A DNA stretch of 64,000 bases. Source: a virus (lineage: Duplodnaviria; Caudoviricetes). The translations under genes and the position numbers were made by a program. Positions within the stretch are counted from its first letter, which is position 1, and the number at the start of each line of letters is the position of its first letter. The stretch is taken from the IMG/VR virus record IMGVR_UViG_3300031519_000019, positions 6,921 through 70,920 of that record. The stretch is one strand, 5' to 3'. The notes beneath the pieces were generated by a model. It did not search any database, had not been told where the DNA came from, and saw nothing but the letters and a program-made list of their open reading frames with translations. Below, one piece after another: positions 18,201-48,624 of this stretch.

Positions 18201-21200
18201 GTTTTATTAAATCTAAACATAATCTAGGCGAATTAAAAAGAGATATTACATTTAATAATGATAATTTAACAAGCTATGAAGAATATATTGATGAAGTTAA
18301 ACCATATTCTACAAAAATACGCGAATTTATAAGTAGTTACACTTCTACGGAAAATACTAGTAGCAGTACTACAGACTTTGATTTAGCACCCGAGTATGAT
18401 AGAATATCTAAATCAATTGTTGCAAGTAAAGCTAGATTGATTGATGGCGTTATATTTGGCGCACCAAATAGTACAGCAGTTTATCCTAGAAAACATTGGT
18501 TAGATAATGTAGGTTATAAAGTAACTAGTATTAAAGTTGGCAATGTAGGTAGCGGTTATACAACAGCACCAACAGTGACCCTTGTAGGTGGCGGTGGCGC
18601 TGGGGCAACTGCAAAAGCATATTTGGGATATGGCACAGTTACTGGTATAGAAGTAATTGACTCTGGCAGCGGATACACATCTGCACCAACAGTAGTAATA
18701 CAAGGTTCTCAAACTAATAATAGTATTGCTGCAACAGCGTCCGCTATATTAGGTAGCGGGTTAGTACGTTCGTCTACTATTAAAATTAAATTTGATAGAA
18801 TAACTGGATCATATACTTTTGAAAATCTTGCTGAATCTGAGTCCTTTACTGGAACTGGTGCTGAATTGCGCTTTTTCTTAGAATGGCCAATGGATTTAAA
18901 TATTAAAAAGGTTAAAGTATATGTTAATAATGAAGAACAACTTCGTAGTAAATACACTTTTGAAAATATCAAAAATACTGATAAAACTTATACTAGAGAA
19001 CAAGGCAAGATATTATTTACAACACCGCCTGCTCTCAATGCAGTAATTAGAGTAGATTACTATAAGCCTTTGAGTATGTTAAGTGCAGAAGACAGAATAC
19101 AATTTGCATATAATCCTCTAAGTGGAATGTTTGGCAAAGACTTAGCACAATTAATGACAGGCGTTGACTACGGCGGCGTTGAAGTACGCAGTCTAGATTT
19201 TGCAGGCACTAGCGGCTGGGATAGTCAAGGATGGTATACTGATACATGGGATACATTTGACAATAGTTTTGAAGATGAAATTTTTACAGCAGACGGCTCG
19301 ACTATATTTGTAGAAGTATCAAGACCTTTAGAATTAGGTGTTGTTTACACTCTCTACAAAAACGGTGTAAGAATTGATGATCCTAACTTCACTACTGGCA
19401 CCCCTACAAATATAAATGCTATTGTAAACAGTATTACAGGCGACGGTACTACTACTATTATTGATCTAGACGAATTGGGAATTCGGATGTTAGATGGTGA
19501 TGTGTTAATTGTTCGTAAAATTACTAGCGACGGTAGTATTATACCTGATCCAGATAGTTATGATACTGCGTTATCAGGCGGCGATTTAGCATATTCAACT
19601 GCAAAAGGTATCAATGCAGAAGAAATTATTGTAGATGGTGACGGATTTGTAACTGCTACAACAAGTGGAGGTCCAGAGGAACTTGTTCCGGGACAAGTTC
19701 TTGATACTCTAGATATTAAAGTTTATACTAGAGACAGCAACGGCCAAGGCTTAATTTATAGTCAAAGTTACATAATGGATGCTACAGTATCAACTTACAA
19801 CTTAGGTGTTGTTCCTAGTACTGGCTCTGCAATATTTGTTAAAGTAGATAATATTTTACTTAATGATACTGAATATTCAATTGATTGGGCAAATAACACT
19901 GTTGCAATAACTACACCAGTTGACGGTGCTGAGCTTAATATCATGTCACAGGCAATTGGCACTGCAAATATTACCGATTACGGTAGACTAGTTGCAATAG
20001 AAGGTCAAACAGAATACCAAACACTAGTCCGCTGGATAGAAGGTAGCAGTATATTCTTAACAGTTAATGGCATCACTACTTCGGTTGTAATTTTTGAAAA
20101 TAATAGTAAGACGTCTATTAGATTCGAAACACCACTAGGTGCTGGAGATATTATCAATTATACATTATTTGATAATACTTCGCAAGTAAATTACAGCCAA
20201 GTTACAAAGGATACATTTACAACAAATGGTATTTTAGATAAGTTTGTATTACAAAATGCACCTTTCTATTCTATTCCTAACGAGCATAACATTATTGTAA
20301 AATTAGGAAATAGTATTTTAAATGCTGGATACAACATACAATATGTTATACCTGCAAATAATCAAAGAGAATATCAATTAGAATCATTCCAACATCCAGT
20401 AGGCTCGCTTGACACTACTGATGTTAAATTATTCTTAAACGGAGTTGAACTATCGGCACCAGTACAATGGCGTTTTGATATTGCTAATAGTAACGTTGTA
20501 TTGTCAACTGAATACGGTGTCCCAGGCGACTTAATAGAAATATTTGTTATTACCGATGGTGATTATAGAATAGACAATAATACAATTACTCTAGACTCTG
20601 TACCAATGGCGGGACAAACATTGGAAGTATATCAATATTCAAATCATGATATATTGCAAATTGAACGTATAAATTATGATGTAGTTGCAAGAGATACTAT
20701 TATTCCAGAGGACGTTAATTATATTACATACAGTAGATTAACTGTTGGCGAAATTACATTACGTACACCTGCAATTGATGCTCAATATGTTTGGGTTATT
20801 GTTAATGGCGAATTATTAACACCTAGTGTTGATTATTATGTAACTAACGATAGACAACGAGTTCAATTAGTAAATCGTCCTGCACTTAATGATGTAATTG
20901 ACATATTACACTTTACAGCTTCTGCTAATGTTGCTAGATTTGCTTATAGACAATTTAAGGATATGTTGAATAGAACACATTTTAAACGTTTAGATATTGC
21001 TACTACTTCACTTGCACAGCCATTAAACTATTACGATTTAAGAATTGAATTAGTTGATGGTAGTGAATTAGCAGAACCTAATAAAGGTCGTAACTTGCCA
21101 GGTATTATTTTTATTGACGGAGAGCGTATTGAATATCTAGTAAAAGATAATAATACATTGCGTCAACTACGTAGAGGAACATTAGGAACTGGCATTAAGA

Positions 21201-21667
21201 CAGTGTATGAAACTAGCACTAATGTATATGATCAAAATATTAGTAAGACAATTCCATATAAAGATAGAACACTTGTACAGAATTGGGAAAAAGATGAAGT
21301 TAACGGATTAACAAATACATTTACAACAAAATTTAAAATAGGCTCAGTGGACGAAATTGAGGTATTTACTGCTGGAACACGTATGCGTAAAACACAAATA
21401 TCAACATTTAATCCTACAATTGCACTTGATAGTCCTGAAGGTGACGAAGTTGTTGCTAGTGAATTTACGCTAATTAATACATTCGACGAATTTGGTGAAA
21501 TAGAAAGTAGTAGTGTGGTGCTAAATAGCCCTCCTTTAGCTGAAACTAAAGTAACAGTTGTGAAAAAAGTGGGCCAAGTATGGACAGAAGAAGGTACAAC
21601 GTTGGGTGACACAAGAAATTCAATTGCACAATTCTTACGTGCAGGAACATCTGCGCTACCTGAATAA
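6293..21667 (+). CDS. Giant (5124 aa) baseplate/virion structural protein, gp7-position, with propeller-like, CBM-like and GxGY repeats
   Basis: Single uninterrupted ORF coupled to the gp6 stop (TAATG). Contains FG(E/Y)S(I)xxS propeller-like repeats, W/F-x4-Y-x2-G/N-x2-VxY repeats and GSGYTxAPTV repeats typical of large myovirus virion proteins. Confidence 0.75.
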
Positions 21668-31887: not shown

Positions 31888-32476
31888 ACTACTTAATTTA
31901 TTTAAAAAATTATCAGAAAATAAAATTGAAACAGCCTTAAAGTCTTATGTATACTATAATAGTGCCACTGGTAAGGTTTATAAAGTTAGTAATCGAAAAA
32001 TTTCAGACTCTGAGTACAGTATATTAGAAGTTTCATTTAACGATACTGAAGACTTATTGTCCGGCAAAAAACGCACCGACGATTATATTGTAGTTCCTAG
32101 CGAAACAACATCTTTGCCTGTTTTAAAATTATTAAACAGTTTAATTTTAACAAGTGATGTAGAACATCGATGCTATAAATTACCAGTTAAATTAGGTCAT
32201 TCCAATGTTAATATTATAAAAAACTTAAAAACACAATCGTGGGATTTACAGTTAGACGCTCAGACTGCACTAATATGCTCTGCAGAAAATTCAAAAAATA
32301 CATTATATTTTAGTATAACAAAAAAAGATGATCCAAACATACTTTATAGATCTATTGAATTTTTTAACAATACCACTTCAATACCATTCGCTTATGACTT
32401 TGAATATATGGATGAAACTGTAAGTATATATAGTTCAAAATATTTTAATACGTATAGCTACGAGGTTATAAAATGA
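31880..32476 (+). CDS. Hypothetical protein (198 aa)
   Basis: Overlap-coupled to both neighbours; no motif recognised. Confidence 0.65.
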   Translation: MSELLNLFKKLSENKIETALKSYVYYNSATGKVYKVSNRKISDSEYSILEVSFNDTEDLLSGKKRTDDYIVVPSETTSLPVLKLLNSLILTSDVEHRCYKLPVKLGHSNVNIIKNLKTQSWDLQLDAQTALICSAENSKNTLYFSITKKDDPNILYRSIEFFNNTTSIPFAYDFEYMDETVSIYSSKYFNTYSYEVIK

Positions 32477-34077
32477 TACAAAAGTTTAAAGTAATTGATT
32501 GCGACATCATTTATCTAAGTTACGATGAGCCTAATGCAGAAAAAAATTATGCAGACTTACTTACTAAGGTACCGTGGGCTAAACGTGTACATGGTGTAGA
32601 AGGCAGCGATGCTGCGCACAAAGCATGTGCAAGATTAAGTGAAACTGATCAATTTATTACTGTTGACGGTGATAATATAATTGATCAAAAGTTTCTTGAT
32701 CTTGAGATTGAATTTCAAGAGCATGTTGAGTTGCAAACAAGTGTAATTAGTTGGTCTGCAAAAAATTCTATTAATGATCTTATGTACGGTAACGGTGGCA
32801 TTAAGTGCTGGCCTAAGCAACATGTTTTAAACATGCGCACACATGAAAATGCAGATCCAAATAATATAGCAGCACAAGTAGACTTTTGTTGGGATTTGAA
32901 TTATATACAGCAAAATACTGCATTTTCTACTATACATAATAATGCTACACCTCACCAAGCCTGGAGAGCCGGCTTTAGAGAAGGCGTTAAAATGTGTCTT
33001 AATCAAGGTGAAAAACCTTCTATAGAACAGTTTATTAACGGCCACAAACGCAATTTACAAAGACTGTATATTTGGTTAATGGTTGGTGCTGATGTAAAAA
33101 ATGGCGACTGGGCTATATTAGGTGCTAGAGCAGGATTGTATAAAACAATGTGTACAGATTGGGACTTTGTAAATGTAAGAGATTTTGAATATCTTAATAG
33201 TTTATGGAATGAAGAATTTGTAGATTTTGAAGGTCATAATGTATACGACGAAATTGTCAAATACGGTTCTAAATTAAAACAAGAATTAACTCTACCAATA
33301 TCTGTAAATCCGTTTGATAGTCAACAAAGCGCTTTCTTTAAAAGCATATATGTTCAGCCTCTTCGAACTACTGACTTGACTAATATTGTTACTAAAAGCA
33401 ATTACGATATGGTACTTATTTCATACCAGGAACCTAATGCAGACGCAAATTATGAAAAACTAAAAAAGAAATTTCCTAGAATCCAGCGAGTTAATGGTGT
33501 TAAAGGAATACATGCAGCACACAAAGCCGCAGCGGAATTATGCAACACACCGATGATGTGGGTAATTGATGCTGATGCTGATGTAGTAGATAATTTTAAA
33601 TTTGATTACAACGTTAATGATCACGATCAAGATTGTGTGTTTGTATGGCACAGTAAAAATCCTATTAACGACTTAGAATACGGGTATGGAGGAATTAAAC
33701 TTTTCCCAACTAAGTTAACTCAAAATATGGATATGTCTAAACCTGACATGACTACAAGTATCAGTACTAAGTTTAAAAAGATGGAAGAAGTATCGTGCGT
33801 AACTCGATTTAATACAGATGAATTTAGTACTTGGCGCAGTGCATTTAGAGAATGTTGTAAACTGTCTAGCAAAATAATTGACAGACAAAAATCAAATGAA
33901 ACTGATGCAAGATTAGCAGCATGGTGCAGCAACATAGGCAGAGATCGCCCGTTTGGAGACTATGCTATCAGCGGTGCTAGGGCCGGCCGTAAATACGGTA
34001 TAGATAATCAAGGCAATATTGACGCACTAAAAAAGATTAATGACTTTGAATGGTTAAAGGAAAAATTTAATGAGTAA
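32473..34077 (+). CDS. Tandem two-domain glycosyltransferase-like (GT-A) protein
   Basis: Internal duplication: IYLSYDEPNAEKNY...RVHGVEGSDAAHKACA...TVDGDN...AWRAGFREGVK versus VLISYQEPNADANY...RVNGVKGIHAAHKAAA...VIDADA...TWRSAFRECCK; DxD in both halves. Confidence 0.65.
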   Translation: MIQKFKVIDCDIIYLSYDEPNAEKNYADLLTKVPWAKRVHGVEGSDAAHKACARLSETDQFITVDGDNIIDQKFLDLEIEFQEHVELQTSVISWSAKNSINDLMYGNGGIKCWPKQHVLNMRTHENADPNNIAAQVDFCWDLNYIQQNTAFSTIHNNATPHQAWRAGFREGVKMCLNQGEKPSIEQFINGHKRNLQRLYIWLMVGADVKNGDWAILGARAGLYKTMCTDWDFVNVRDFEYLNSLWNEEFVDFEGHNVYDEIVKYGSKLKQELTLPISVNPFDSQQSAFFKSIYVQPLRTTDLTNIVTKSNYDMVLISYQEPNADANYEKLKKKFPRIQRVNGVKGIHAAHKAAAELCNTPMMWVIDADADVVDNFKFDYNVNDHDQDCVFVWHSKNPINDLEYGYGGIKLFPTKLTQNMDMSKPDMTTSISTKFKKMEEVSCVTRFNTDEFSTWRSAFRECCKLSSKIIDRQKSNETDARLAAWCSNIGRDRPFGDYAISGARAGRKYGIDNQGNIDALKKINDFEWLKEKFNE

Positions 34078-34903
34078 TGAAAGTACTTTAAGCTGGGTAA
34101 GAGGTCTATCAGAATATTTAAGATTTGTTGATGATAAGGAAGCAAAAAAGTTTATTGATTTTTTAGAACAAGCTATGTATGCAGATTCGCCAGTAATTGA
34201 TGATACTAATCAAGCAGGAATGATTGAATTTATAAGTGTATTAAGAAAGTTTACACCAAACCCAATTTTTGATATATTTCATAAGTATTACAGATTAGGT
34301 AATAACCCATTATTGCTACAAGATGCATTTAGTAGAGGACAGGTATTAAGTAAAATCTGGTTAGCTGAAGAATTATTAAAAATTAAAAATAATTTTGAAA
34401 TGATTCATGTACATGCAGGATGGTTTGGACAGCTACGTCTTTACCTTGATGCAGTAAATATCTCTTATAATAAAATGAGAATTTTTGATATTGATCCAGC
34501 TGCACTAGAAGTGAGCGACAAAATTTTTAATAATGATAAAATTAAAGACTTTGAAGTAAAATCTGCAAGTTTAGATATTACAAATCCTACTTGGTTATTT
34601 AGAACAGGATGCGAATATAATATAACTGCTACATCTAAAGAAAAAACAATACCTGATCTTGTAGTTAATACTAGTGCAGAACACTTTAACGAAGATTGGT
34701 ATACTAAATTTAGTATTAGAACCCAAAGCAGTGATCCTCTTTTTGTAATTCAAACAAACAATTTATTTGATGTAGAAGAACACATAAACTGTGTACATAG
34801 TATAAATGAAATGTTAATTAAATTTCCAATGACACGGATCGAATATGCCGGCGAAAAAGAACTATTTGGTTATAAACGATTTATGTTAATAGGACGCCCA
34901 TGA
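34070..34903 (+). CDS. Class I SAM-dependent methyltransferase-like protein
   Basis: IHVHAGWFG (motif I-like), RIFDIDP (acidic end of strand 2), LVVNTSAEH. Confidence 0.65.
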   Translation: MSNESTLSWVRGLSEYLRFVDDKEAKKFIDFLEQAMYADSPVIDDTNQAGMIEFISVLRKFTPNPIFDIFHKYYRLGNNPLLLQDAFSRGQVLSKIWLAEELLKIKNNFEMIHVHAGWFGQLRLYLDAVNISYNKMRIFDIDPAALEVSDKIFNNDKIKDFEVKSASLDITNPTWLFRTGCEYNITATSKEKTIPDLVVNTSAEHFNEDWYTKFSIRTQSSDPLFVIQTNNLFDVEEHINCVHSINEMLIKFPMTRIEYAGEKELFGYKRFMLIGRP

Positions 34904-35121: not shown

Positions 35122-36068
35122 CAATGAACATAATTAAAATTTTAAAAGAAAATAAAAAATCTATAATTGAGCAATCAGTAGAATGGATTAAAAAATCTTA
35201 TCCTAATCGTACTACTGAATTTGAAAAGTGCTATAGAGATATTGGTTATGTGTATGATGCATGGATATATGATTTAGAAAATACTAATACTGCTAGAACA
35301 AAGAATATTACCAGTAGATTTTGGAACAGAGGAAAGTCTCAGTTAAGAACAACTGATGTTGAAGTAAAAACTTATAAAATAATTAATACTTTGATAAACG
35401 AAATTTGTCCGTCTGTTGAAGTTGATAGCTTAATATCTATTACAATAAACAATATTTTAAATGAACCAATTTATGAATTAGGGTCTTTCGAATATCTCGC
35501 AAATAATAGAATCAATACATATAATTGGACAGATCAAATACCTGAACAGCATTTAATAGATGATATTGTAAGAGGCATACACAATTATGTGCCGAGTAAA
35601 CAGCGTCGAGTTAGATACGATTTACGTATTATTCCTACACATACACTGCCTGAGTTACAACAAAAGATGTATAAAGGCACTGAAGCAGATCTAGGTAATC
35701 CAAAATCAAGATATAATCCTCAAGTACTTGCACCTTATGTTCTTGCCTTTGGCATTAGAGGAACTCCGCAAGACGGAGTTGATAAAAATTACTATCTCTA
35801 TGAAGCAGGGGTTGAAATAGGGCTTGCAGCAATGTATGTTAGTCTTGCTGCTCCTGCTGTTGGATTGGCTGTTGGATTTTGCGCTTGTATACAAAATGAT
35901 AACGACATGGTTGAGGATATTGGCATACATCCTCAATTATATTTAGGAATTGGTTATAAATCTGAGGCTCTTACATATCATTGCCCGGTATATAACGCCG
36001 AAGCTCACATACCAGATAGCAATGATTATAAAAAACCTCCTATAGAAGAATACATAAAATATGTATAA
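35118..36068 (+). CDS. Nitroreductase-family (FMN) domain fused to an N-terminal helical domain
   Basis: WTDQIPEQHLIDDIV...PSKQ...APYVLAF...EIGLAAMYVSLAAPAVGLAVGFCAC is the nitroreductase pattern; N-terminal KCYRDIGY. Confidence 0.7.
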   Translation: MTMNIIKILKENKKSIIEQSVEWIKKSYPNRTTEFEKCYRDIGYVYDAWIYDLENTNTARTKNITSRFWNRGKSQLRTTDVEVKTYKIINTLINEICPSVEVDSLISITINNILNEPIYELGSFEYLANNRINTYNWTDQIPEQHLIDDIVRGIHNYVPSKQRRVRYDLRIIPTHTLPELQQKMYKGTEADLGNPKSRYNPQVLAPYVLAFGIRGTPQDGVDKNYYLYEAGVEIGLAAMYVSLAAPAVGLAVGFCACIQNDNDMVEDIGIHPQLYLGIGYKSEALTYHCPVYNAEAHIPDSNDYKKPPIEEYIKYV

Positions 36069-37128
36069 GTATGAAGATATAAAAGCAATTCATCTTGAAG
36101 TAACTCAAAATTGTCAAGCCAGTTGTCCTATGTGCGACCGCAATATGAATGGCAAAGGCATAAACCCTCATATTAACTTAGATGAACTTTCATTAGAAGA
36201 TTGCAAAAAAATATTCTTGCCAGAGTTTATTGCACAACTTAACACAATGTATATGTGCGGAAACTTAGGTGATCCTATTGTTGCTCGTGATACCTTAGAA
36301 ATATTCAAGTACTTCCGTGAACACAATACTAACATGTGGCTGAGCATGAATACAAATGCAGGAGCAAAGAATGAACAATGGTGGAAAGAACTTGCAGAAG
36401 TTTTTGGAAGAATGGGCGCAGTTATTTTTAGTGTTGACGGCCTCCGTGACACTAACCATATCTATCGTCAAGGCGTTGTATGGGACAATGTAGAGCGTAA
36501 CATGAAGGCGTTTATTAGTGCAGGCGGTAGAGCTCGTTGGGACTTTTTAATATTTGAACACAACCAACATCAAGTTGAAGAAGCAGAAACACTTGCTAAT
36601 GCGTGGGGCTGCGAAAAGTTTATGAAGAAAAAGACAGGCCGCTTTATTACGCAAGATTCAAAGAAAAAAGAATCGCACCAAGCAGTTGACAAAAAAGGAA
36701 AGGTAGCAGCAGAATTAAAAAAACCTGATATTAAATATCAAAATAATGCATTAAAGACTCAAGAAAAAGTAGAAAAGAAATATAATAGTATGGATGCATA
36801 CTATGATAGCGCTCCTATTATTTGTAAAGTAAAGAAAGACAATAGCTTGTTCATTACAGCAGAAGGTCTAGCATTGCCTTGTTGTTGGACAGCCGGACGC
36901 ATGTACAAATGGTGGCATAAAGATCCTAAGGTAGAACAAATATGGGATTTTATCCCTAATAAAGATGCATTAGATGCACGTAACGGATTAGCAGCAGTAT
37001 TTAACACAGGTATATTTGATAGTATACAAAGCAGTTGGAGTAAGCCTAGTTGCGCAGACGGCAAACTAAAAGTATGTGCGATGAAATGCGGCGCCGAATT
37101 TGATCCATTTGCAGAGCAGTTTAAGTAA
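36061..37128 (+). CDS. Radical SAM protein with C-terminal twitch/SPASM Cys cluster
   Basis: CQASCPMC; CGNLGDP; C-terminal C...ITAEGLALPCC...C...CAMKC. Confidence 0.88.
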   Translation: MYKYEDIKAIHLEVTQNCQASCPMCDRNMNGKGINPHINLDELSLEDCKKIFLPEFIAQLNTMYMCGNLGDPIVARDTLEIFKYFREHNTNMWLSMNTNAGAKNEQWWKELAEVFGRMGAVIFSVDGLRDTNHIYRQGVVWDNVERNMKAFISAGGRARWDFLIFEHNQHQVEEAETLANAWGCEKFMKKKTGRFITQDSKKKESHQAVDKKGKVAAELKKPDIKYQNNALKTQEKVEKKYNSMDAYYDSAPIICKVKKDNSLFITAEGLALPCCWTAGRMYKWWHKDPKVEQIWDFIPNKDALDARNGLAAVFNTGIFDSIQSSWSKPSCADGKLKVCAMKCGAEFDPFAEQFK

Positions 37129-38654: not shown

Positions 38655-40064
38655 ATGACAGAGAAAAAAGCACCAAGCGAAACATTTTGCCTCCTTCCGT
38701 GGGTACATTTAAGTACAAGACCTGACGGAAGCATGCGAGTATGCTGTACTGCAAATGCAAGCAGTGTCGGCGCAACTAATGATAAAGAACACGGCGGACA
38801 AGTTGGTATTCTTAAAACAGATGACGGCAAGCCCAATAACTTAAACGTAAGTGACTTTGAAACAGCATGGAACAGCACATACATGAAAAATGTGCGTAAG
38901 CAAATGCTTGCCGGAGAAAAACCTCCTAGTTGTTTGAAGTGCTACAGAGAAGAAGCAGCAGGACATAATAGCAAACGTATGTGGGAAACTGCATATTGGA
39001 GTCAACGTACAGATGTTGATAAACTAATTGCTGATACTGCTGAAGATGGTAGTGTGCCACCGCAACTAGCATACATTGACTTGCGCTTTGGCACAAAGTG
39101 TCAGCTTGCGTGTGTTATGTGCAGTCCGCATGATAGTAGTGGTTGGATTAAAGATTATAAAGCAATCTTTCCTGATGTTAAAAACGAGTCACTTAAAGAA
39201 ACAATGCAGTGGCAAGACAAAGGCAGTACTAACGGCAGTAGCTACAACTGGCATAAACAAAATCCTACATTTTGGAAACAGTTTTATGAGCAAATGCCTA
39301 GTATGCAACAAATTTACTTTGCCGGCGGCGAAAGTCTTATTATCGAAGAGCATTACGAAATACTTGAACACGCTATTAAAATGGGTTATGCAAAAGACTT
39401 AGAGTTACGTTATAACTCAAATGGTGTAGAATGGCGCGAAGATTTGTTTGAGTTGTGGAAAGAATTTAAGCTAGTACGATTCCACTACTCGATTGACAGT
39501 ATCGAACAGATGAATGAATATATTCGTTATCCAAGTAAATGGACACGTCAAACAGAAGTATTTCATATATTAGATAAGAAAACAAGTAATAACGTTGAAG
39601 TTACTGTAGCTTGTGCGGTACAAGCTCTAAATATATATTACATACCTGATCTTATCAAATGGAAACTTACACAAGGATTTAAAAAAATCAACATGTGGCC
39701 ATTTGGTGCCGGCGGCGTAAACTATCATTTTGTTTATCATCCACCGCATCTTAATGTTAAAGTATTGCCAGCTTGGTTTAAAGCCGAAGTGCGTAAAAAG
39801 TACGAAGAGTTTTATCCATGGTGGGAAGCTAATTGGGAACTCGGTGTCCCGAGTTGGCACAAAGGAAAGGTTGATTATGATAAATGGCGCAGTGCTAGTT
39901 ATGGTATTAGTAGACTAGAAGGCATGTTACAGTTTATGGAATCAGAAGACTGGAGTCAACGCTTACCTGAGATGAAAGAGTTTTTAAGTCTTTGTGATAA
40001 ACAGCGAGGAATGTTGTTTGAAGATACATTCCCAGAAATGAAGGATATATTTAATGTTAGCTAA
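38655..40064 (+). CDS. Radical SAM protein with N-terminal twitch-type Cys cluster
   Basis: N-terminal FCLLPW...GSMRVCC...CLKC, then DLRFGTKCQLACVMC and FAGGESL. Confidence 0.9.
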   Translation: MTEKKAPSETFCLLPWVHLSTRPDGSMRVCCTANASSVGATNDKEHGGQVGILKTDDGKPNNLNVSDFETAWNSTYMKNVRKQMLAGEKPPSCLKCYREEAAGHNSKRMWETAYWSQRTDVDKLIADTAEDGSVPPQLAYIDLRFGTKCQLACVMCSPHDSSGWIKDYKAIFPDVKNESLKETMQWQDKGSTNGSSYNWHKQNPTFWKQFYEQMPSMQQIYFAGGESLIIEEHYEILEHAIKMGYAKDLELRYNSNGVEWREDLFELWKEFKLVRFHYSIDSIEQMNEYIRYPSKWTRQTEVFHILDKKTSNNVEVTVACAVQALNIYYIPDLIKWKLTQGFKKINMWPFGAGGVNYHFVYHPPHLNVKVLPAWFKAEVRKKYEEFYPWWEANWELGVPSWHKGKVDYDKWRSASYGISRLEGMLQFMESEDWSQRLPEMKEFLSLCDKQRGMLFEDTFPEMKDIFNVS

Positions 40065-40932
40065 GATTAACAGAGCAGAAGACATTGCAAATCATAAAAC
40101 TTATAGACTAGATTACGAACACTGGTTAGCAAATTTAAAAGACCCAACTGTACAACAAAATATAGCAGCAAACTTTCAAAAAGCAGAAGTATTTAATGAA
40201 GCATTTACTGAAGAAGAAATTAGTTGGATGTATGGATATGCATTTAGTCGTTGCGATACAGTAAGACATAATGATAACGGTACAATGTTTATAAGCGGCA
40301 ACCTACAGGGAGTATATGAAAAATTTGCTGATCGCATAAATGAAATGGTACCGGGTGCAGAAAACTCACCTGTTGTTGGCGGCAATTTCTTTATTACTCC
40401 TAGTCAGTATGGATTACATAATGATAGTACTAGAGAATCGGATTGGAAAAATAGTTTAACTAAGACTTCTATAGATCACGAAGGCCGCAAGTGGGCGCCT
40501 TGGAGAAATATCATTATTCCGTTATTTACTGCGCCTAACAATATAGAAAGTCATGCTGTATTTTTTAACCAGCGCCATGTTGATTTTGCTCACGTGTATC
40601 ATCACGGTAAAAAACCAGAACAAACTGTTGCTACAACATATCCTATTGTTGATAATCATGTTGACATTGATTTTTATTTGTTAGATGGCACAATACAAGA
40701 TAAAAAATTAAATCTTGTAAAATATAACAAAGAACACTACGATGAATATTTGTATTATACACCTTATAGACGCTTAACAGGATTAACGCCTGAACTAACT
40801 TGCGAGTGGAAACCTCGTGCTCCTATTGTGTTTGATGCTGTGCAATTGCATGCAACAAATAAAGGTCGTCCAGATAATCATTGGACAACTAAAATGGGAT
40901 TGTTACTAACGTTTCTTAGAGAGATAAAATGA
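40054..40932 (+). CDS. Fe(II)/2OG-type oxygenase-like protein
   Basis: GLHND...NIIIPL...IVFDAVQLHAT...KMGLLLTF (HxD...H). Confidence 0.55.
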   Translation: MLAKINRAEDIANHKTYRLDYEHWLANLKDPTVQQNIAANFQKAEVFNEAFTEEEISWMYGYAFSRCDTVRHNDNGTMFISGNLQGVYEKFADRINEMVPGAENSPVVGGNFFITPSQYGLHNDSTRESDWKNSLTKTSIDHEGRKWAPWRNIIIPLFTAPNNIESHAVFFNQRHVDFAHVYHHGKKPEQTVATTYPIVDNHVDIDFYLLDGTIQDKKLNLVKYNKEHYDEYLYYTPYRRLTGLTPELTCEWKPRAPIVFDAVQLHATNKGRPDNHWTTKMGLLLTFLREIK

Positions 40933-42209
40933 ATTTAGATACCGTTTGTCCTGCTGTATGGGATCACCTATGCGTAAACACAATGGGGAAAAATCGTTTA
41001 TGCTGTAATGCTGTTACACAAGACAAAGATAAATTTATTGGCAATCTTGACCAGCACTGGAATGTTCTTAGAGACAATGTTAAAAAAGAAATGTTGGCTG
41101 GCAATCGTCCAGACATTTGCAAAAGTTGTTGGAAAAAAGAAGAATCTGGCATATCTAGTTTACGAGATCAATTTATTGAAAATTATAAAAATCAAGGTAT
41201 CTGGGATAAATTTGTAGATGACATTCCTACAACAAAAAAATATCCAGTAGAACTTGACCTTAAATTAGGAAATTACTGTAATCTAAGTTGTAGGATGTGC
41301 AGTAGCTATAGTAGCAGCGGCGTTGCAAATGAATTCCAAAAAATCCTTAAAGATACTGGTGTTGATTTAGGACTAGACGAGTACGAAAAAAACTTTGTTC
41401 AAAACAAATGGTATCTCCAAGAAGAGTTTGTAGATTCGATAAAAGACATGATTGCAAACGGTCTGCGCCATTTAAAATTTACAGGCGGCGAACCATTAAT
41501 GGTTCCCAGCGTAAAAAAACTAATTGACTACTGTGTTGATAATGATTATGCTAAGAACATTGATTTAATCATAATAACAAATGTAACACTAATAGACGAC
41601 GAATGGATTAAACGATTTAAGGCATTTAAGTTTGTAAACATTATTTGTAGTATAGACGGCATAGGCAATACTTTCGAATATATAAGACATCCTGCAAATT
41701 GGAATGATGTAAACAGTAAGTTACAAAAACTATCTGATGTACAGACTGCGCAGTTGGTAACTTCGATTACGTTTACATTACAAATATATAATATTCTTGA
41801 AATTAGGAATATGGTGGAACTATCTAAAAAATATAACTTTCATATAACTTCTATTCCTTTAGATACGCCTGAATATCTAGATGTACGTAACGCTCCACAG
41901 ACTCTTAAAAATGCTGCATTAGAAATGATAGCAGATTTAGAAAATGAATTAAATCCAAAGATTACGCCTCGAACAGAAGATAACTGTCTATGTTTTCATG
42001 ATTTAAAACCTAAAGACGTTCCGTGTGCTAGAACGTGCCCAATTGTACTTACTAATGTATTAGTCAAATTTGTTAATAATGTTAAAAAGAAAATTAATCA
42101 ACCCCAACAGCAAGACAATAGTAAGAAATTTTTAGAAATAACTAAATTAAAAGACACGTATAAAAAACAAAGTTTTGATACAATGGAGATAGCAAAGTAC
42201 TATGATTAA
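40929..42209 (+). CDS. Radical SAM protein with N-terminal twitch cluster and extra C-terminal Cys-rich insert
   Basis: VCPAVW...RLCC...CKSC; DLKLGNYCNLSCRMC; FTGGEPL. Confidence 0.9.
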   Translation: MNLDTVCPAVWDHLCVNTMGKNRLCCNAVTQDKDKFIGNLDQHWNVLRDNVKKEMLAGNRPDICKSCWKKEESGISSLRDQFIENYKNQGIWDKFVDDIPTTKKYPVELDLKLGNYCNLSCRMCSSYSSSGVANEFQKILKDTGVDLGLDEYEKNFVQNKWYLQEEFVDSIKDMIANGLRHLKFTGGEPLMVPSVKKLIDYCVDNDYAKNIDLIIITNVTLIDDEWIKRFKAFKFVNIICSIDGIGNTFEYIRHPANWNDVNSKLQKLSDVQTAQLVTSITFTLQIYNILEIRNMVELSKKYNFHITSIPLDTPEYLDVRNAPQTLKNAALEMIADLENELNPKITPRTEDNCLCFHDLKPKDVPCARTCPIVLTNVLVKFVNNVKKKINQPQQQDNSKKFLEITKLKDTYKKQSFDTMEIAKYYD

Positions 42210-43356
42210 ATGTTTTGCAACTACTAATAGTGTAATGATAGATCCGTTAGGACAAGTTAAACCTTGTTGCAAATATGATGGTTTCTTTGGTCATATCGAC
42301 GAATACGATAGTATTGATGATATACTTAAGAGTAAACACTACATTAGATTACAAATAGCTCACTCTGTTGGAAATTTTACAAGAGGATGTTGGAGATGTA
42401 AAGAATCAGAGGATCGAGGATATAAAAGTCGTCGACAATATTATGACGATCAATATACCGATACTGACTTCTTATTAGACATTAGTCCGGGAACATATTG
42501 TAATTTAAAATGTCGCATGTGTAATCCTTGTAATAGTACTAAATGGTTTTCAGATTGGGACGCATTAAGAAAAATGGGAATAATAAATTCAAAACCTACT
42601 AGCTCTTTAAATGTGTACAACATGCCAGAAGATGATGTTGACAAAATTATTAATTTTTTAGATACCACGTCTTATGAGATTGCAATAGAGTTTAAAGGCG
42701 GTGAGCCGTTAATGAATCCTAAAACTCAAACGCTGTTTGAAAAAATGGCAAATTGCAAAAGCAGTAATCGAATATCTATAATGTTAATTACTAATGGAAC
42801 ATATAAGGTTGATTGGTTGGCAAATATTGCTGATAAATTTAAACGCCTTCATATCGGTATTAGTGCAGATGGTATTGGTAAGGTATACGAGTATATACGA
42901 GGTGATAAAACCTATAATTGGAAAAGATTCTTAGAATCAATCGAATCTTATAAAAGTATTCCTAATACTACCTTATCATTTAATTATGTAGTGCAAAATA
43001 CAAACATTCATCAGATGGCTGACTTCGCAGATGCAGTAGCACCTTATAGTGTGGGGTGGATATTATTAAATAACCCAATGTGCTTATCTACTACTGTTAT
43101 TCCTCTTAGTGCAAGAGCTGATATTATAAAAAAACTACAGCCGCTGCTCAATACAACTCCGAAAGATCGAGAACAATTTAATACCTTAATGAGTATAATG
43201 AACGAATTAACTAGCAATGTTGATATGGATAAGGAAATGTATAAAAAGTTTATTGAATATTCGGCAGCATTGGATAAACTTCGCAATCAAAGTTTATTAG
43301 ATGTAGCTCCTCACTTAATTACAGAAGAAGGCAAAAGAATATATGACTCAATCTAA
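42202..43356 (+). CDS. Radical SAM protein with N-terminal twitch cluster
   Basis: KC...GQVKPCC...CWRC; GTYCNLKCRMC; FKGGEPL. Confidence 0.9.
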   Translation: MIKCFATTNSVMIDPLGQVKPCCKYDGFFGHIDEYDSIDDILKSKHYIRLQIAHSVGNFTRGCWRCKESEDRGYKSRRQYYDDQYTDTDFLLDISPGTYCNLKCRMCNPCNSTKWFSDWDALRKMGIINSKPTSSLNVYNMPEDDVDKIINFLDTTSYEIAIEFKGGEPLMNPKTQTLFEKMANCKSSNRISIMLITNGTYKVDWLANIADKFKRLHIGISADGIGKVYEYIRGDKTYNWKRFLESIESYKSIPNTTLSFNYVVQNTNIHQMADFADAVAPYSVGWILLNNPMCLSTTVIPLSARADIIKKLQPLLNTTPKDREQFNTLMSIMNELTSNVDMDKEMYKKFIEYSAALDKLRNQSLLDVAPHLITEEGKRIYDSI

Positions 43357-44497
43357 AACATTCTGTGCATTACCGTGGATGCATCTTGCTACTAATGCAA
43401 GCGGCAATCTTCGAGTGTGCTGTAACAGTACTCCGGGTAAAAACTTTATTACTAAAAAAGACGGCACCCCTTACAAGCTACAAAAAGATGACTTACAAGA
43501 AGCATGGAATAGTGAAGTATATACTACTATTCGTAAGCAGTTACTTGCTGGCGAACGTCCTGAAATGTGTACACGTTGTTTTAGAGAAGAAGATGTTGGC
43601 ATTAAAAGTGCTAGACAAAGTTGGAACAACAAGTGGGAAGAAGATAAAGAGTATACAATAGATGCACCTTTTGACATTAAATATGTTGACTTACGGTTAG
43701 GCAACTTGTGTAATTTAAAATGTCGTATGTGCAATCCGTATGCAAGTAACATGTGGGTTAAAGAATGGAACCTAGTTGAAACTGCACTAAGTGAAAGTGA
43801 ATACAAGCGTCTTAGTAGTATGAACTGGCCTGAGCATGAAAAGACTTGGGAAAACTTGTTTAGTATTGCACACACAGTAGATGAAATATACCTAACAGGC
43901 GGCGAACCTACAGTTATTAAAGAACAACAAAAATTGTTAGATTACTTTATCGACAACGGTACTGCAAAAGACATACGTTTAAAATACAATACTAATTTAG
44001 TTAAAGTACAACCTTGGCTACTTGAACGCTGGACTCATTTTAAACGAGTGCAACTTAATTGCTCAATAGATGCTACTGGTGCATTAGATCATTATATTCG
44101 ACATCCGAGTAAATGGGATACGATTGTAAAGAATTTTGAAACTATTAGACAGCTTCCTAATGCAGGAATTGAAATACACTGCACAGTACAAATGTACAAT
44201 ATATTAAGACTGCCTGAACTAATAGACTGGGCTACACCTTATGGACATAGAATATATTTTAACATTCTTAATCATCCTGAAGAATTAAATATTAGAGTGT
44301 TGCCCAAACATCTAAAAGATCAAGCTGCAAAACAATTACAACCGTATTTGCATTTAGATAAGGTGCAAGGTATTATTGATTATATGTATGCCGAAGATTG
44401 GAACAATAAATATAGTAAGTTTATGAAATACACAATTGCACTAGATGCAAGCAGAGGTGAAAACTTATTTGATCTAATACCGGAGTTTAATCAATGA
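43343..44497 (+). CDS. Radical SAM protein with N-terminal twitch cluster
   Basis: FCALPW...GNLRVCC...CTRC; DLRLGNLCNLKCRMC; LTGGEPT. Confidence 0.9.
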   Translation: MTQSKTFCALPWMHLATNASGNLRVCCNSTPGKNFITKKDGTPYKLQKDDLQEAWNSEVYTTIRKQLLAGERPEMCTRCFREEDVGIKSARQSWNNKWEEDKEYTIDAPFDIKYVDLRLGNLCNLKCRMCNPYASNMWVKEWNLVETALSESEYKRLSSMNWPEHEKTWENLFSIAHTVDEIYLTGGEPTVIKEQQKLLDYFIDNGTAKDIRLKYNTNLVKVQPWLLERWTHFKRVQLNCSIDATGALDHYIRHPSKWDTIVKNFETIRQLPNAGIEIHCTVQMYNILRLPELIDWATPYGHRIYFNILNHPEELNIRVLPKHLKDQAAKQLQPYLHLDKVQGIIDYMYAEDWNNKYSKFMKYTIALDASRGENLFDLIPEFNQ

Positions 44498-45129
44498 AAA
44501 TAGGAGTATTTGGCGATAGTTATGCAGAGCATACGGCAGCTAATCCTGCACATTTAGAATGGTGGCAGTATGTACAACAATGTCCTAATATAGAAATAGA
44601 CACCTACGGATTTGGCGGATCTAGCTTATACTATACGTGGAAACAATTTCATATTCACCAACACAAGTATGACAAAGTTATTGTTTGTTTTACTATGCCT
44701 AACAGACTTTGGTTGCCACATTTGCCAAAACATTGGCAATCGGAACATGTTCATTCTCTAGATGCTTTAAAACACAGAACTTTTAAAAGTACGTCTGCTG
44801 CTAGAATTATGAAGAATGCATTAACATCATATTACAAGTATATTGTTAATTTAGAAGAACAACAAGATATTTGGAAGCTTCAAATTGCAGATATAAAGCG
44901 CACAAGACCCGATGGACTATATCTTGCTTGTTTTCCAGATGACGAAATTATTTCAGATTATATGCCGCTTTTTGAAATATCTAAACTAGATGGCGATTTA
45001 ATGGGTACTCAGCGAGATACTCGAGCAAATCATTTTAACGATAAAAACTGTAGGATATTTGCAAAAAAAATAGAAACTTGGATACACACAAATCAGTTTA
45101 GTTTAGATATAGAAGATTTTAGTAAATGA
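44494..45129 (+). CDS. SGNH/GDSL-like hydrolase or acyltransferase
   Basis: MKIGVFGDSY (block I), YGFGGSS (block II), C-terminal NH. Confidence 0.65.
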   Translation: MKIGVFGDSYAEHTAANPAHLEWWQYVQQCPNIEIDTYGFGGSSLYYTWKQFHIHQHKYDKVIVCFTMPNRLWLPHLPKHWQSEHVHSLDALKHRTFKSTSAARIMKNALTSYYKYIVNLEEQQDIWKLQIADIKRTRPDGLYLACFPDDEIISDYMPLFEISKLDGDLMGTQRDTRANHFNDKNCRIFAKKIETWIHTNQFSLDIEDFSK

Positions 45130-45782
45130 AAATTGGATTTTTTGGATGCAGTCATGTCGGCGGATTTTATCCAACTTATTATAATTTAGCTGAAGAAGTT
45201 GCAGCAAAGTGTCCTCAACACGAAATACATGATTACAGCTTCGGCGGCCATAGTCAACAAATGATAATTTACTTATTTGAAAAATTTAAACAAGAACACG
45301 ACTTTAATATAGTAAAAATAACTAGTCCGGGAAGACTTAGTTTTTTTAATAACTTTGACTTTGCTAAAAACAGAAAATTTAAGACTTCTAATTTTAATAC
45401 ATGGTCTAACCTTAGTTACTACGGAAAGAATGTTGTTAGGATGAATTATTCAAGTTGCCCTCTTTCCGTAGCAGAGCCTAAATATAGTTTAAAATCTATA
45501 AAAAAATTACATAAAATGTATTATTCTCATATAAGTTACGAACTAGCAAATATTGAGTCGTTGGCTATTACAAAATATCTTCAATCATCGGCAGATTTTG
45601 TGTATGCACACCGGGCATTTCAAAAAGAAGCAATGCCTAATGATATTTTATGTACTGAAAAGTTTTTGTTACCTAACTATCAATCTTATGTAATAGATGA
45701 AGGGTATCATCTAGGTCTAGAAGGCACAAAAGCAGAAGCCGAATGGCTTATAAATAATATAAAGGAATTAAAACATGCCTAA
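45126..45782 (+). CDS. SGNH/GDSL-like protein
   Basis: MKIGFFGCSH, YSFGGHS, TSPGR, DEGYHLG; paralog of 46859. Confidence 0.6.
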   Translation: MKIGFFGCSHVGGFYPTYYNLAEEVAAKCPQHEIHDYSFGGHSQQMIIYLFEKFKQEHDFNIVKITSPGRLSFFNNFDFAKNRKFKTSNFNTWSNLSYYGKNVVRMNYSSCPLSVAEPKYSLKSIKKLHKMYYSHISYELANIESLAITKYLQSSADFVYAHRAFQKEAMPNDILCTEKFLLPNYQSYVIDEGYHLGLEGTKAEAEWLINNIKELKHA

Positions 45783-46848
45783 GTGTGCTTTACTTGATAC
45801 ACATGTTTGTGCAGTACTGCCAGGAAATTACAAGCCTTGCTGTCAGTTTGAACAATACCGCACAACTAATGTTAAACTTTCAGAAATGTCTCATAAGGAA
45901 TATACACAAACTCCTGAGTTTCAAAAAATTAAAAGCGACATGGAAACAGGCTGGCACAAAGGATGCGAAAAGTGTAGACTCGACGAAACACAGAATAGTA
46001 TTCAAAGCCTTAGGCAAATATCAAACGAAAACTTTAAAAGTGATCTAGGCATTCAATTTGTTGAAATAAGTCTGAGCAACAATTGCAATTTATCTTGTAA
46101 AATGTGCAACACAGACAGTAGTAGTAAGTGGAGTAATTTATATAAAACCAATCCTGATCTACAACATTATTTTAGGGATAACAATCAAGAAATATCAATA
46201 GAACGAGTGTTCAACGGCTTAGACCTTTCAAATTTAAAAGTTATAAAATATTTAGGTGGTGAACCTTTTATTACACCGCAGACCAAAGAGTTATTTAATT
46301 TTTTAGAAGACCAAAATATTATAAACAATGTTCAACTTACTACAAATACTAACTGCACTTTTTTCCCTCACAAATGGATAAAACAATTATTAAAGTTTAA
46401 AAGTGTTCGTATAGGACTAAGTCTTGATGGATTTAAAAAGTCTTGCGAATATTCGAGAACTGGTAGTAATTGGGATGAATTAACTAAAAATGTAAAATAC
46501 TGGGCAATGATGCAAAAACGTCATCCTAAATTTAATATTCGATTCAGTACAACGGTAAACGCACTAACAGTGCATGATTACACTAATTTTATTAATTATG
46601 CAAACGAAGTGGGATTAGGATATACACCTTATGTAGTACATGCTCCGGCATATTTAAAACTAGAAGCATTACCTCCTGAGTATGTTGACAGCATAAAAGA
46701 TGAAAATAACAAGCAATTTTTAGACAATGTTGTGTATGATCCAGAACTTTTTGAAAAGTTTAAAAAGTTTATTGAAATAACTGACAGCGCACAAAATATA
46801 AATATTCGAGACTATCTTCCAGAGTTAGCACAATACATTGACAAATAG
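45775..46848 (+). CDS. Radical SAM protein with N-terminal twitch cluster
   Basis: KC...YKPCC...CEKC; EISLSNNCNLSCKMC; YLGGEPF. Confidence 0.9.
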   Translation: MPKCALLDTHVCAVLPGNYKPCCQFEQYRTTNVKLSEMSHKEYTQTPEFQKIKSDMETGWHKGCEKCRLDETQNSIQSLRQISNENFKSDLGIQFVEISLSNNCNLSCKMCNTDSSSKWSNLYKTNPDLQHYFRDNNQEISIERVFNGLDLSNLKVIKYLGGEPFITPQTKELFNFLEDQNIINNVQLTTNTNCTFFPHKWIKQLLKFKSVRIGLSLDGFKKSCEYSRTGSNWDELTKNVKYWAMMQKRHPKFNIRFSTTVNALTVHDYTNFINYANEVGLGYTPYVVHAPAYLKLEALPPEYVDSIKDENNKQFLDNVVYDPELFEKFKKFIEITDSAQNINIRDYLPELAQYIDK

Positions 46849-46858
46849 GATTTTATAA

Positions 46859-47479
46859 ATGAAAATAGGTGTATACGGTTGTAGTTGGTGCTCAGGAGTT
46901 TACCCAGATTTTATTGGATGGCCAAAGAATTTAGCTAAAATGCTGCCAGAACATGAAATAAATGATTACAGTCTAGGCGGACTTAGTATAGAAGCAATAC
47001 TCTATTGGTTTGAACAATTTAAAGATCATAATGATATAAACATTGTAAAATTAACAACTCCTTATAGACTAACAATTATATCCGAAGATGCTGAAGTTAA
47101 ACGAACTCAAGTAACTGAAAATTATTCTACATGGGATAAAAATTTTACAGAGACAATGATTAGAATTCATCCTAACTCACCGCCTCAAGGTGCTGGTAAA
47201 TTACATAGGATTTACTACAAGTACTATAATCAAACAGTTGGTTTGATAACAGCGCATGCAATTGCAGAATACTTAAAAAATCATAAAGATGTACATATGA
47301 TATTTAAACATCAATCATATGATAAACACCATCCAGACATTAGTATAGCTACACAAAATTTTATACCAAGTTTTAAATCTTATATTATAGATGATGGACA
47401 ACATTTGTCGTATGAAGGCGCCCAAATTGAAGCAGAATACATAAAAAATTATCTAATTAATAATCAACTAATAACTTGA
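46859..47479 (+). CDS. SGNH/GDSL-like protein
   Basis: MKIGVYGCSW, YSLGGLS, TTPYR, DDGQHLS (DxxH). Confidence 0.6.
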   Translation: MKIGVYGCSWCSGVYPDFIGWPKNLAKMLPEHEINDYSLGGLSIEAILYWFEQFKDHNDINIVKLTTPYRLTIISEDAEVKRTQVTENYSTWDKNFTETMIRIHPNSPPQGAGKLHRIYYKYYNQTVGLITAHAIAEYLKNHKDVHMIFKHQSYDKHHPDISIATQNFIPSFKSYIIDDGQHLSYEGAQIEAEYIKNYLINNQLIT

Positions 47480-47503
47480 CAGATACATATAAGGTGTTAT
47501 AAT
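47476..47503 (+). promoter_or_regulatory. sigma70-type promoter TTGACA-N16-TATAAT with extended -10 (TGn), leaderless
   Basis: TTGACA 47476-47481, TG at 47495-47496, TATAAT 47498-47503, ATG only 5 nt downstream. Confidence 0.8.
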
Positions 47504-47508: not shown

Positions 47509-48624
47509 ATGAATGAAGACTTAAAGTGGAGCAACTACGATTTTACAAAGATTCCTTTTGATGACATTGTCAGTGTTGGACAAAGGACACTTCTATATCG
47601 CGACTTATTTACTGTGTCTTGGCTGCTTGGCCGCTTTTGCAACTATAAGTGCAGCTATTGTTGGCCATATGCCCGTAGTGATAGAAAAGACCATAGGCCG
47701 ACTGAATTGTGTCTTCATACAATCGACGAAATAAAGAGGCAGGCACGTGATAACGGGTTTAATAGCTTTCATTTTAGTTTATCTGGTGGTGAGCCTACTT
47801 TTCACCCTGGTTACTTGGACATTCTCAAACATCTTGCTAATGATGTTGGTAATACTAATTATACATCTGTTCACATGACATCAAACTGCTCACGCAACAT
47901 GGCGTGGTTTGAAGAGTATGTAGAAGCAGTTAAGCCATTCCACCGTGCCAGTATTACAGCAAGTTTGCACACAGAGCATCTTAACACTACTGAGAAGATG
48001 CAGGACTTTGCTGACAAGCTAATTTTCTGTCAAGAGCATGATGTACAAGTTACGATCAATATGGTTATGGTACCCGACTGGTTTGAACGTGATTGGGAGA
48101 ACGCATTGTTCTTTCACGAGCAGGGCATAAACGTAACGCTAAAGCCTCAAAGCGACCCTACAGCTAGTCGAGTAGTAGATGGGTATACAGCAGACAACCT
48201 AAAGCGTTTACACAACGGTATGCCGCAACGTGCGTACACAGAAAGCAAGCGCAAGTGGGCGGACCGTCCCAAACCAACATTTCAAGTACCTAAAGACATC
48301 ATGGGTAAGAATGATGCTAGTGTACCTTGGCACATGCAAGTAGAGTTTAAAGATTCGACTGGTAAAAAATGGTATATGGATCAAGCTGAACGGTTTAATG
48401 CTTTTAATTTTAATAATTTTAAAGGCTGGAGTTGTAATGCCGGATATTCTGGAATTATTATTCGAGAGCCTGACGGTAGTGTTAAGCGATCCTATTCCTG
48501 TCATGATGTGCCGCTTGGAAATATAGAAACAGGGTTTAAACTCTTTGATGCTCCTATGCCTTGTATAACAGACAGTTGTGTAAGTAGCGCAGACAGTAAA
48601 ATTCCAAAGAGAAAAAATGCGTAG
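47509..48624 (+). CDS. Radical SAM protein with C-terminal twitch-like Cys cluster
   Basis: VSWLLGRFCNYKCSYC; SLSGGEPTFHP; C-terminal WSCNAG...PDGSVKRSYSC...PMPCITDSC. Confidence 0.88.
   Translation: MNEDLKWSNYDFTKIPFDDIVSVGQRTLLYRDLFTVSWLLGRFCNYKCSYCWPYARSDRKDHRPTELCLHTIDEIKRQARDNGFNSFHFSLSGGEPTFHPGYLDILKHLANDVGNTNYTSVHMTSNCSRNMAWFEEYVEAVKPFHRASITASLHTEHLNTTEKMQDFADKLIFCQEHDVQVTINMVMVPDWFERDWENALFFHEQGINVTLKPQSDPTASRVVDGYTADNLKRLHNGMPQRAYTESKRKWADRPKPTFQVPKDIMGKNDASVPWHMQVEFKDSTGKKWYMDQAERFNAFNFNNFKGWSCNAGYSGIIIREPDGSVKRSYSCHDVPLGNIETGFKLFDAPMPCITDSCVSSADSKIPKRKNA

Follow-up and report, generated by a model that had tools for sequence, protein, structure and literature searches.

Five genes for radical S-adenosylmethionine (SAM) enzymes lie between positions 38655 and 46848 of a 64,000-nucleotide stretch (the window) of the genome of a giant, uncultured marine tailed phage, IMG/VR record IMGVR_UViG_3300031519_000019; genes are named here by their first position in the window. 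Judged by their sequences, the encoded proteins are ancient members of a catalogued family, N_Twi_rSAM (NCBIfam NF033640), in which a cysteine-rich twitch domain is placed ahead of the catalytic core. They belong to a conserved module that giant T4-like phages and Bdellovibrionota have in common. With a little more conviction than doubt, we regard this as a tailoring module whose N_Twi enzymes act on one non-peptide substrate, with a sugar or glycan as the best guess.

The N-terminal twitch domain of five radical SAM paralogs

The segment carries eight densely packed, mostly overlapping genes on the plus strand, five of which encode radical SAM enzymes of 357 to 469 amino acids (aa); the other three are 40054 and the small paralogs 44494 and 45126 (Table 1). 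All five radical SAM open reading frames (ORFs) start with five cysteines in the order C-x17-CC…C-x2-C, and the CxxxCxxC triad follows 33 to 52 residues downstream. A sequence-only reading of the window had reported the pattern C-x(15-20)-CC...CxxC ahead of CxxxCxxC in these ORFs. This was confirmed, with a first spacing of exactly x17 in every case and a Gly four residues ahead of the CC doublet. That reading had also noted a comparable cysteine cluster at the C terminus of 36061 and 47509, and conserved cysteine sets were indeed located there. When the conservation of the N-terminal cysteines was checked, both these and the triad cysteines were invariant among the five and in 29 diverse N_Twi relatives. 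In a larger set of 93 members, three of the five cysteines were invariant and the other two at least 90% conserved, and the complete motif was found in the same order in 222 of 246 fetched homologs of single-domain length.

The five proteins share only 19 to 35% pairwise identity, and each has the marks of a radical SAM enzyme: a Pfam PF04055 match above the cut-off, the CxxxCxxC triad, the GGE SAM-binding motif (G186-G187-E188, invariant in the family alignments), and a partial TIM-barrel core, whose fold in the model of the 43343 protein matches anSME, viperin, and BlsE at Z scores of at least 13. All reading frames are intact and retain every family-invariant residue. The Pfam SPASM model (PF13186) scored above its cut-off at the N terminus of three proteins (residues 4-66 in the 42202 protein); therefore, the cysteine pattern is not due to chance. 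In the literature, SPASM and twitch domains are described as C-terminal extensions (PMC9012708; PMC9477430). Here the cysteine domain occupies residues 1 to about 100, ahead of the core, and is not C-terminal. It has five conserved cysteines instead of the seven or eight of a full SPASM domain and no CxxCx5Cx3C motif; this count points to one auxiliary cluster and therefore to a twitch rather than a full SPASM domain.

Against NF033640, a model of 398 positions with a curated cut-off of 170 bits, the proteins scored 419.3 (38655), 284.3 (40929), 218.0 (42202), 401.1 (43343), and 216.6 bits (45775). The alignments ran from model positions 1-5 to 389-398, the same was found on the genome record, and the Cys-rich twitch motif N-terminal to CxxxCxxC, which the family calls for, is present in all five. 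By these profile matches, the five ORFs are assigned to a catalogued family, and their architecture is one already curated, not a new kind. RadicalSAM.org (2021) also mentioned that some members of the SPASM/twitch megacluster, without structures, have extra cysteines N-terminal to the barrel (PMC9477430). The sequence-only reading, which knew of no function for this architecture in phages, thus holds in part: the architecture was confirmed, its N-terminal domain was identified as twitch, and no published function was found in phages or elsewhere, but the architecture is not undescribed, given NF033640 and the RadicalSAM.org report. Literature searches on N_Twi_rSAM, NF033640, and N-terminal twitch or SPASM domains returned no paper naming or assaying the family, and searches for radical SAM enzymes in Bdellovibrio and for twitch domains in connection with carbohydrate or epimerase gave no matches. 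The PDB likewise holds no solved structure of the family and gave matches to the core only.

To place the domain, a profile made from the first ~100 residues of 33 family members was searched against the whole PDB. Only one match was significant (E 5e-5), to residues 166-237 of BtrN, its C-terminal twitch domain. Family residues C8, C26, C76, and C79 align with C169, C187, C232, and C235 of BtrN, which are taken to be its cluster ligands; the x17 spacing is the same. Four Cys coordinate the auxiliary cluster of BtrN, which is believed to take up the electron during the two-electron oxidation of an aminocyclitol sugar substrate (PMC9012708). A model of the domain alone (predicted local distance difference test [pLDDT] score, 90.7) gave the same best match in two structural searches. 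In Foldseek, BtrN ranked first (TMq 0.61), and the substrate-bound form superposed at 1.7 Å over 73 columns. In VIA-align, BtrN (162-249) was again first (Z 5.0, 83 of 101 residues); the next match reached Z 2.4, and the SPASM domains of ChlB and SuiB stood behind BtrN at Z ~2. As defined on BtrN and MoaA, a twitch domain consists of a beta-hairpin and a helix with three or four Cys for one auxiliary [4Fe-4S] cluster. Profile and model both identify the N-terminal domain as a genuine twitch domain of the BtrN type, whose four aligned cysteines should bind one fully ligated auxiliary [4Fe-4S] cluster.

The catalytic core was compared by using a full-length AlphaFold2 model of the 43343 protein (pLDDT 96.6). 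Residues 111-352 matched anSME (Z 13.7), viperin (13.4), BlsE (13.2), and SkfB (13.0), and no solved protein matched the whole chain (template modeling [TM] score, ≤0.40).

Separate bacterial sister clades and a shared gene module

In a tree of 130 family members, the five phage proteins grouped with different bacterial proteins (bacterial loci are numbered with the prefix L). The 38655 protein formed a clade with proteins of the Bdellovibrionota loci L007-L011 at 59 to 61% identity (support, 100). The sister group of 43343 comprised proteins of L002, L003, and L004 (support, 99), with 49 to 50% identity to those of L002 and L003. The 42202 protein fell with L002_3117 and the proteins of L031, L026, and L003 (support, 99), and a second tree in which L026 was left out recovered it with L002_3117, L031, and L003 (support, 97). 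The remaining two have long branches: 40929 paired with L002_1804, itself a long branch (support, 95 to 98), and 45775 grouped with L008_16977 and the proteins of L024 and L033 (support, 80). Forcing the five into one group cost 315 log-likelihood units (approximately unbiased [AU] test, p-AU 2e-45). The sequence-only reading had described an expanded family; as a local expansion, this was rejected on the strength of the separate bacterial sister clades and the AU test. The trees identify the five as ancient paralogs, each with its own Bdellovibrionota sister clade, rather than as the product of an expansion in the phage lineage. The 43343 and 38655 types are kept at 50 to 100% identity across dozens of phage contigs, which argues for purifying selection.

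The two types are part of a larger module, whose other members are a DxD protein, a radical SAM enzyme with a C-terminal CC-twitch domain, another radical SAM enzyme with four C-terminal Cys, and a partner protein of unknown fold. In the window, the five N_Twi genes are translationally coupled within it. Homologs of 32473, 34070, 36061, 38655, 40054, 43343, 47509, and 49311 were clustered in bacterial loci at 29 to 68% identity, and the order 32473, 34070, 36061, 38655 … 43343 … 47509 was kept in 80 giant-phage contigs of up to 457 kb. Other N_Twi paralogs vary by lineage between and around the conserved genes, so that a phage locus holds one to nine N_Twi genes; among bacteria, multicopy arrays of two to seven copies were found in 32 of 73 loci. 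The bacterial loci are chromosomal, on contigs of up to 3 Mb with flanking genes such as those for EF-G, Mfd, and PhoH. Thus, giant T4-like phages and Bdellovibrionota have a conserved module in common. On one Bdellovibrionales chromosome (OZ220490.1, 1.89 Mb), there are two separate arrays, L077 and L020, of five and seven N_Twi genes, some of them duplicated very recently (branch lengths of 0.2-0.3 in the tree). Housekeeping genes flank L077, which ends in a 47509-type radical SAM gene and asparagine synthase.

The conservation of the partner genes varies. The 47509 protein is 66 to 68% identical to the products of Bdellovibrionota genes beside N_Twi genes and is present in most phage loci at 62 to 94% identity. 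The 36061 type, found in many loci directly 5' of the 38655-type gene, is 45 to 47% identical to its counterparts next to Bdellovibrionota N_Twi genes. The 32473 protein shows 40 to 45% identity to single-domain genes in L007-L011 and occurs in most phage loci, nearly always with the 34070, 36061, and 38655 types; its family has an invariant D84-x-D86. This DxD family had no match in Pfam, NCBIfam, or PHROGs, and a profile search of the PDB returned nothing significant. The 34070 protein, kept in phage loci, has about 30% identity to genes in L008-L011; it had earlier been labeled a "methyltransferase," and no Pfam, NCBIfam, or PHROG match was found for it. For 49311, a protein of unknown fold, identity to the bacterial neighbor is about 30%.

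The 36061-type enzyme deserves a closer comparison. It has a related core, to which NF033640 aligns (residues 5-244, E 2e-11), and matched the 45775 protein in blastp at E 9e-12; this core is the nearest non-N_Twi relative in the window. Its cysteine set, C-x18-CC…C-x3-C, shares the G-x4-CC hairpin with the N_Twi twitch domain but is C-terminal and ends in C-x3-C instead of C-x2-C; the first C, P-CC, and C-x3-C are invariant in its family. When the cysteine domain was aligned with the N_Twi twitch profile in hhalign, a probability of 69.5% was obtained (E 4e-5). A profile of the 36061 C-terminal domain found nothing significant in the PDB and did not reach BtrN. With this weak support, the N_Twi family and the 36061 type may be circular permutants of each other.

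The family as a whole is large: 2,267 clusters at 50% identity matched at E <1e-30. Most bacterial members occur in Bdellovibrionota and Bacteroidota, and others in Pseudomonadota, Bacillota, Acidobacteriota, and further phyla. Giant phages of marine and fresh waters carry the family in great abundance, and the 43343 protein alone has more than 120 metagenome clusters at 70 to 96% identity. Long forms with two radical SAM triads (790-1,413 aa) made up 18 of the 150 best representatives, and 11 of these 18 have two complete twitch motifs; P0121, P0124, and P0134 are examples of tandem modules. Megablast of the region against cultured phages gave no match, and a protein search of cultured phages returned only matches of 20 to 26% identity, to Vibrio phages and Ralstonia phage RsoM2USA. 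In the cultured Vibrio phage K566 (OZ196521.1, 255 kb), five weak query matches (24%) lie at about 161.5-170.3 kb among genes annotated as radical SAM or hypothetical, and the annotated radical SAM genes are followed, after about 8 kb, by a PagP-like gene. This phage could serve as a tractable experimental model.

Interleaved genes and genomic setting

Table 1. Features of the radical SAM region, in window coordinates (nt, nucleotide positions; residue numbers refer to the encoded protein)
Position	Strand	Length (aa)	Feature	Twitch Cys (nt)	CxxxCxxC (nt)	Twitch Cys (residues)	Triad Cys (residues)
32473..34077	+		Two tandem copies of DxD-motif family; conserved module partner				
34070..34903	+		Conserved module partner, unknown fold				
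36061..37128	+	355	Radical SAM (PF04055), C-terminal CC-twitch-like domain; conserved module gene				
38655..40064	+	469	N_Twi radical SAM paralog 1	38688-38942	39099-39122	12/30/31/93/96	149/153/156
40054..40932	+	292	Interleaved protein, candidate Fe(II)/2OG-oxygenase-like				
40929..42209	+	426	N_Twi radical SAM paralog 2	40947-41129	41277-41300	7/25/26/64/67	117/121/124
42202..43356	+	384	N_Twi radical SAM paralog 3	42211-42399	42499-42522	4/22/23/63/66	100/104/107
43343..44497	+	384	N_Twi radical SAM paralog 4	43364-43579	43709-43732	8/26/27/76/79	123/127/130
44494..45129	+	211	SGNH/GDSL-like small protein, N-terminal FGDS				
45126..45782	+	218	SGNH/GDSL-like small protein, N-terminal FGCS				
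45775..46848	+	357	N_Twi radical SAM paralog 5	45784-45975	46084-46107	4/22/23/64/67	104/108/111
46859..47479	+	206	Third SGNH/GDSL-like paralog				
47509..48624	+	371	Radical SAM (PF04055), four conserved C-terminal Cys; conserved module gene				

In the 40054 family, H122-x-D124…H266 is invariant in 13 homologs and resembles the triad of Fe(II)/2-oxoglutarate (2OG) oxygenases. The protein is 44% identical to an ortholog located between N_Twi genes in the Bdellovibrionales locus L002. It had no match in Pfam, NCBIfam, or PHROGs, and a PDB profile search of the family gave nothing significant; Atlas searches for 40054 and 45126 returned viral hypothetical clusters only. The three SGNH/GDSL-like genes are paralogs: the 45126 and 46859 proteins share 36% identity, and 44494 is related to both. 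In their family profile, G7, S9, and H195 are invariant (N-terminal G-x-S and C-terminal His), and the N-terminal 55 residues matched the GDSL lipolytic protein 4rw0 at E 5e-4. Two of the three have a GDS motif in which Cys stands instead of Asp. No match in Pfam, NCBIfam, or PHROGs was obtained for 44494, 45126, 37137, 38047, and 48617, nor any family match for 30204, 31042, 31880, and 49311. A glycosyltransferase block proposed earlier for the window is confirmed by no family model.

The genes lie in a T4-like myovirus setting, with a gp5-like hub/lysozyme, a gp6-like wedge protein, and tail fibers just upstream of the island that they form. The genome record is estimated to be 19% complete, which corresponds to a genome of roughly 370 kb. 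Upstream of the island, a single ORF of 5,124 aa (window 6293-21667) lies between the baseplate wedge gene and the fiber genes. A perfect sigma-70 consensus (TTGACA, 16 nt, TATAAT, with TG before it; 12/12) is present at 47476-47503, in the 29-nt gap ahead of 47509. Its -10 box ends 5 nt before the ATG; therefore, transcription from it would yield a leaderless mRNA or begin within 47509. The site may be a chance occurrence, since the region has no overall excess of promoter-like sites.

Possible substrates of the module and relation to known enzymes

If the five enzymes act on one non-peptide substrate, each paralog would use the 5'-deoxyadenosyl radical to abstract hydrogen from a different position or residue of that substrate, which would most likely be a sugar or glycan. 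The resulting radical could be resolved in two ways. The auxiliary cluster might take up an electron, so that the substrate is dehydrogenated in the manner of BtrN and anSME; alternatively, the extra Cys beside the ligand might return a hydrogen, leading to epimerization. Hydrogen return by a Cys is the mechanism of NeoN and of peptide epimerases. A fully Cys-ligated auxiliary cluster would fit the role of electron sink. Further decorations would be added by the oxygenase-like, SGNH-like, and DxD neighbors. Co-occurrence and natural fusions indicate that N_Twi enzymes probably work in sets, and the proposal that they act on more than one position of a common substrate would agree with their conserved co-occurrence and with the tandem fusions.

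A sugar-type substrate is favored because the auxiliary domain has its closest relative in BtrN and because BlsE and viperin are among the best core matches. It is also favored by two negative results: no PqqD or RiPP recognition element (RRE) family was found among the Pfam and NCBIfam matches of the radical SAM proteins, and no plausible precursor peptide or conserved short ORF was found in the 840-bp gap of the L077 array, the sole gap inspected. Finally, GT2 and GT4 glycosyltransferase genes and a carbamoyltransferase gene recur in the array-bearing bacterial loci, and SGNH/GDSL-like genes are present here. Sugar or glycan is therefore our best guess, held with somewhat less than even confidence. 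Several points weigh against it. No window gene matches a glycosyltransferase family, and the invariant DxD of the 32473 family is the only hint of one. Around single-copy homologs outside Bdellovibrionota, the 25 commonest neighbor families include no glycosyltransferase and are heterogeneous (PTA_PTB, ABC transporter, PhyH, ketoacyl synthase, GDSL). The island contains a fatty-acid desaturase and a B12 radical SAM protein resembling lipid enzymes. In addition, we infer both the Fe-S binding and the chemistry of the family from sequences and models. The case for a glycan is thus thinner than it first appears.

The same core matches that include BlsE and viperin include the protein and peptide modifiers anSME, SkfB, SuiB, and CteB, and the array might instead mature a protein. 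It would then introduce crosslinks or epimerized or oxidized residues into a virion protein, for example the upstream tail fibers, or into a bacterial surface protein, which the oxygenase-like and DxD proteins would hydroxylate and glycosylate. The position of the island directly behind baseplate and tail-fiber genes agrees with this, as does the recurrence of Asp/Asn beta-hydroxylase-type oxygenases in the bacterial loci. A giant Aeromonas phage with eight radical SAM genes within its structural gene cluster (PMC12390700) can be counted on the same side. However, neither an RRE/PqqD domain match nor, in the gap inspected, a conserved small precursor ORF was found, bacterial arrays such as L077 lie among housekeeping genes without a candidate substrate protein, and the twitch domain is closest to that of BtrN, a small-molecule enzyme. 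We consider a protein target unlikely.

A lipid of the infected cell's envelope, for example lipid A, could also be the target, with radical C-H chemistry on acyl or isoprenoid chains assisted by the desaturase, the B12 radical SAM protein, and SGNH-type acyl hydrolases. At 4-5 kb downstream are the desaturase (PF00487, 1.7e-18) and the B12 radical SAM gene, whose match to the lipid-type model TIGR04072 (6e-18) falls well short of the model's cut-off; many related phage loci have homologs of the two. PhyH, ketoacyl synthase, PTA_PTB, and GDSL lipase genes adjoin the single-copy bacterial homologs, a UbiA-GT4-GDSL fusion occurs in a flavobacterial locus, and the PagP gene of phage K566 lies about 8 kb from its radical SAM cluster. 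This is set against a likeness to the lipid radical SAM enzymes Tes and GDGT-MAS that is generic core similarity only, a lack of acyl-carrier or lipid-binding domains, and the glycosyltransferases and carbamoyltransferase that recur in array-bearing loci, so that a lipid target seems rather improbable. It is highly improbable that the five are ordinary MoaA-like cofactor enzymes or decaying duplicates without function. The Joint Genome Institute (JGI) names several close homologs "molybdenum cofactor biosynthesis enzyme MoaA," but TIGR02666 scored only 19-47 bits against a cut-off of 284, and by this NCBIfam cut-off the name is wrong. Decay is contradicted by intact frames with all family-invariant residues and by the conservation of the 43343 and 38655 types across phages. 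DNA hypermodification was considered and dropped: the module is found in bacterial chromosomes among housekeeping genes, and no DNA-modification gene was present among the matched neighbor families in either the phage or the bacterial setting.

Returning to a sugar or other non-peptide substrate, a bolder version can be proposed, although we give it limited credence. In giant phages and in the predatory bacteria that carry the module, combinatorially variable sets of N_Twi enzymes would edit the C-H bonds of a glycan of the envelope or virion, or of another non-peptide polymer, after its assembly, and the family would have arisen by circular permutation of the module's C-terminal-twitch enzyme. 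If true, a new class of glycan editing, by radical chemistry after assembly, would be at work, in which the swapping of paralogs diversifies a surface structure, much like O-antigen loci.

The N_Twi family inverts the textbook domain order of SPASM/twitch enzymes and provides a natural test of whether the role of the auxiliary cluster depends on the site at which its domain is attached. Experimental handles are available in the conserved core module, the clear ortholog groups, the two-module fusions, and the cultured Vibrio phages with a similar cluster. The identity of the substrate would explain why roughly 20 kb beside the tail fibers is given to radical and oxygenase chemistry. Here, we add to the curated architecture the residue-level homology to BtrN, the rejection of a local expansion, the ortholog groups common to Bdellovibrionota chromosomes, and a conserved gene set with varying N_Twi paralogs, together with a weak hint of circular permutation.

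Compared with NF033640, the five show no family-level difference, sharing the invariant C-x17-CC…CxxC, CxxxCxxC, and GGE motifs; they represent the family as five old paralogs within a phage module. BtrN (2-deoxy-scyllo-inosamine dehydrogenase, PDB 4M7S/4M7T) has a homologous twitch domain and belongs to the same SPASM/twitch branch. However, its twitch domain is C-terminal to the core and that of the N_Twi family N-terminal, its Phe188 sits where the family has a fifth invariant Cys (the second of the CC doublet), and it has no counterpart of the C-terminal helical extension of ~70 residues; full-length N_Twi models match BtrN-like cores with a TM score of only ~0.4 or less. The SPASM enzymes anSME, SuiB, CteB, and PqqE match the core at Z 12-13.7, and their Pfam domain is recognized, as noted, on three of the five N termini. 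The N_Twi enzymes differ from them in having five cysteines rather than seven or eight, a predicted single auxiliary cluster rather than two, the inverted domain order, and no RRE among their Pfam and NCBIfam matches.

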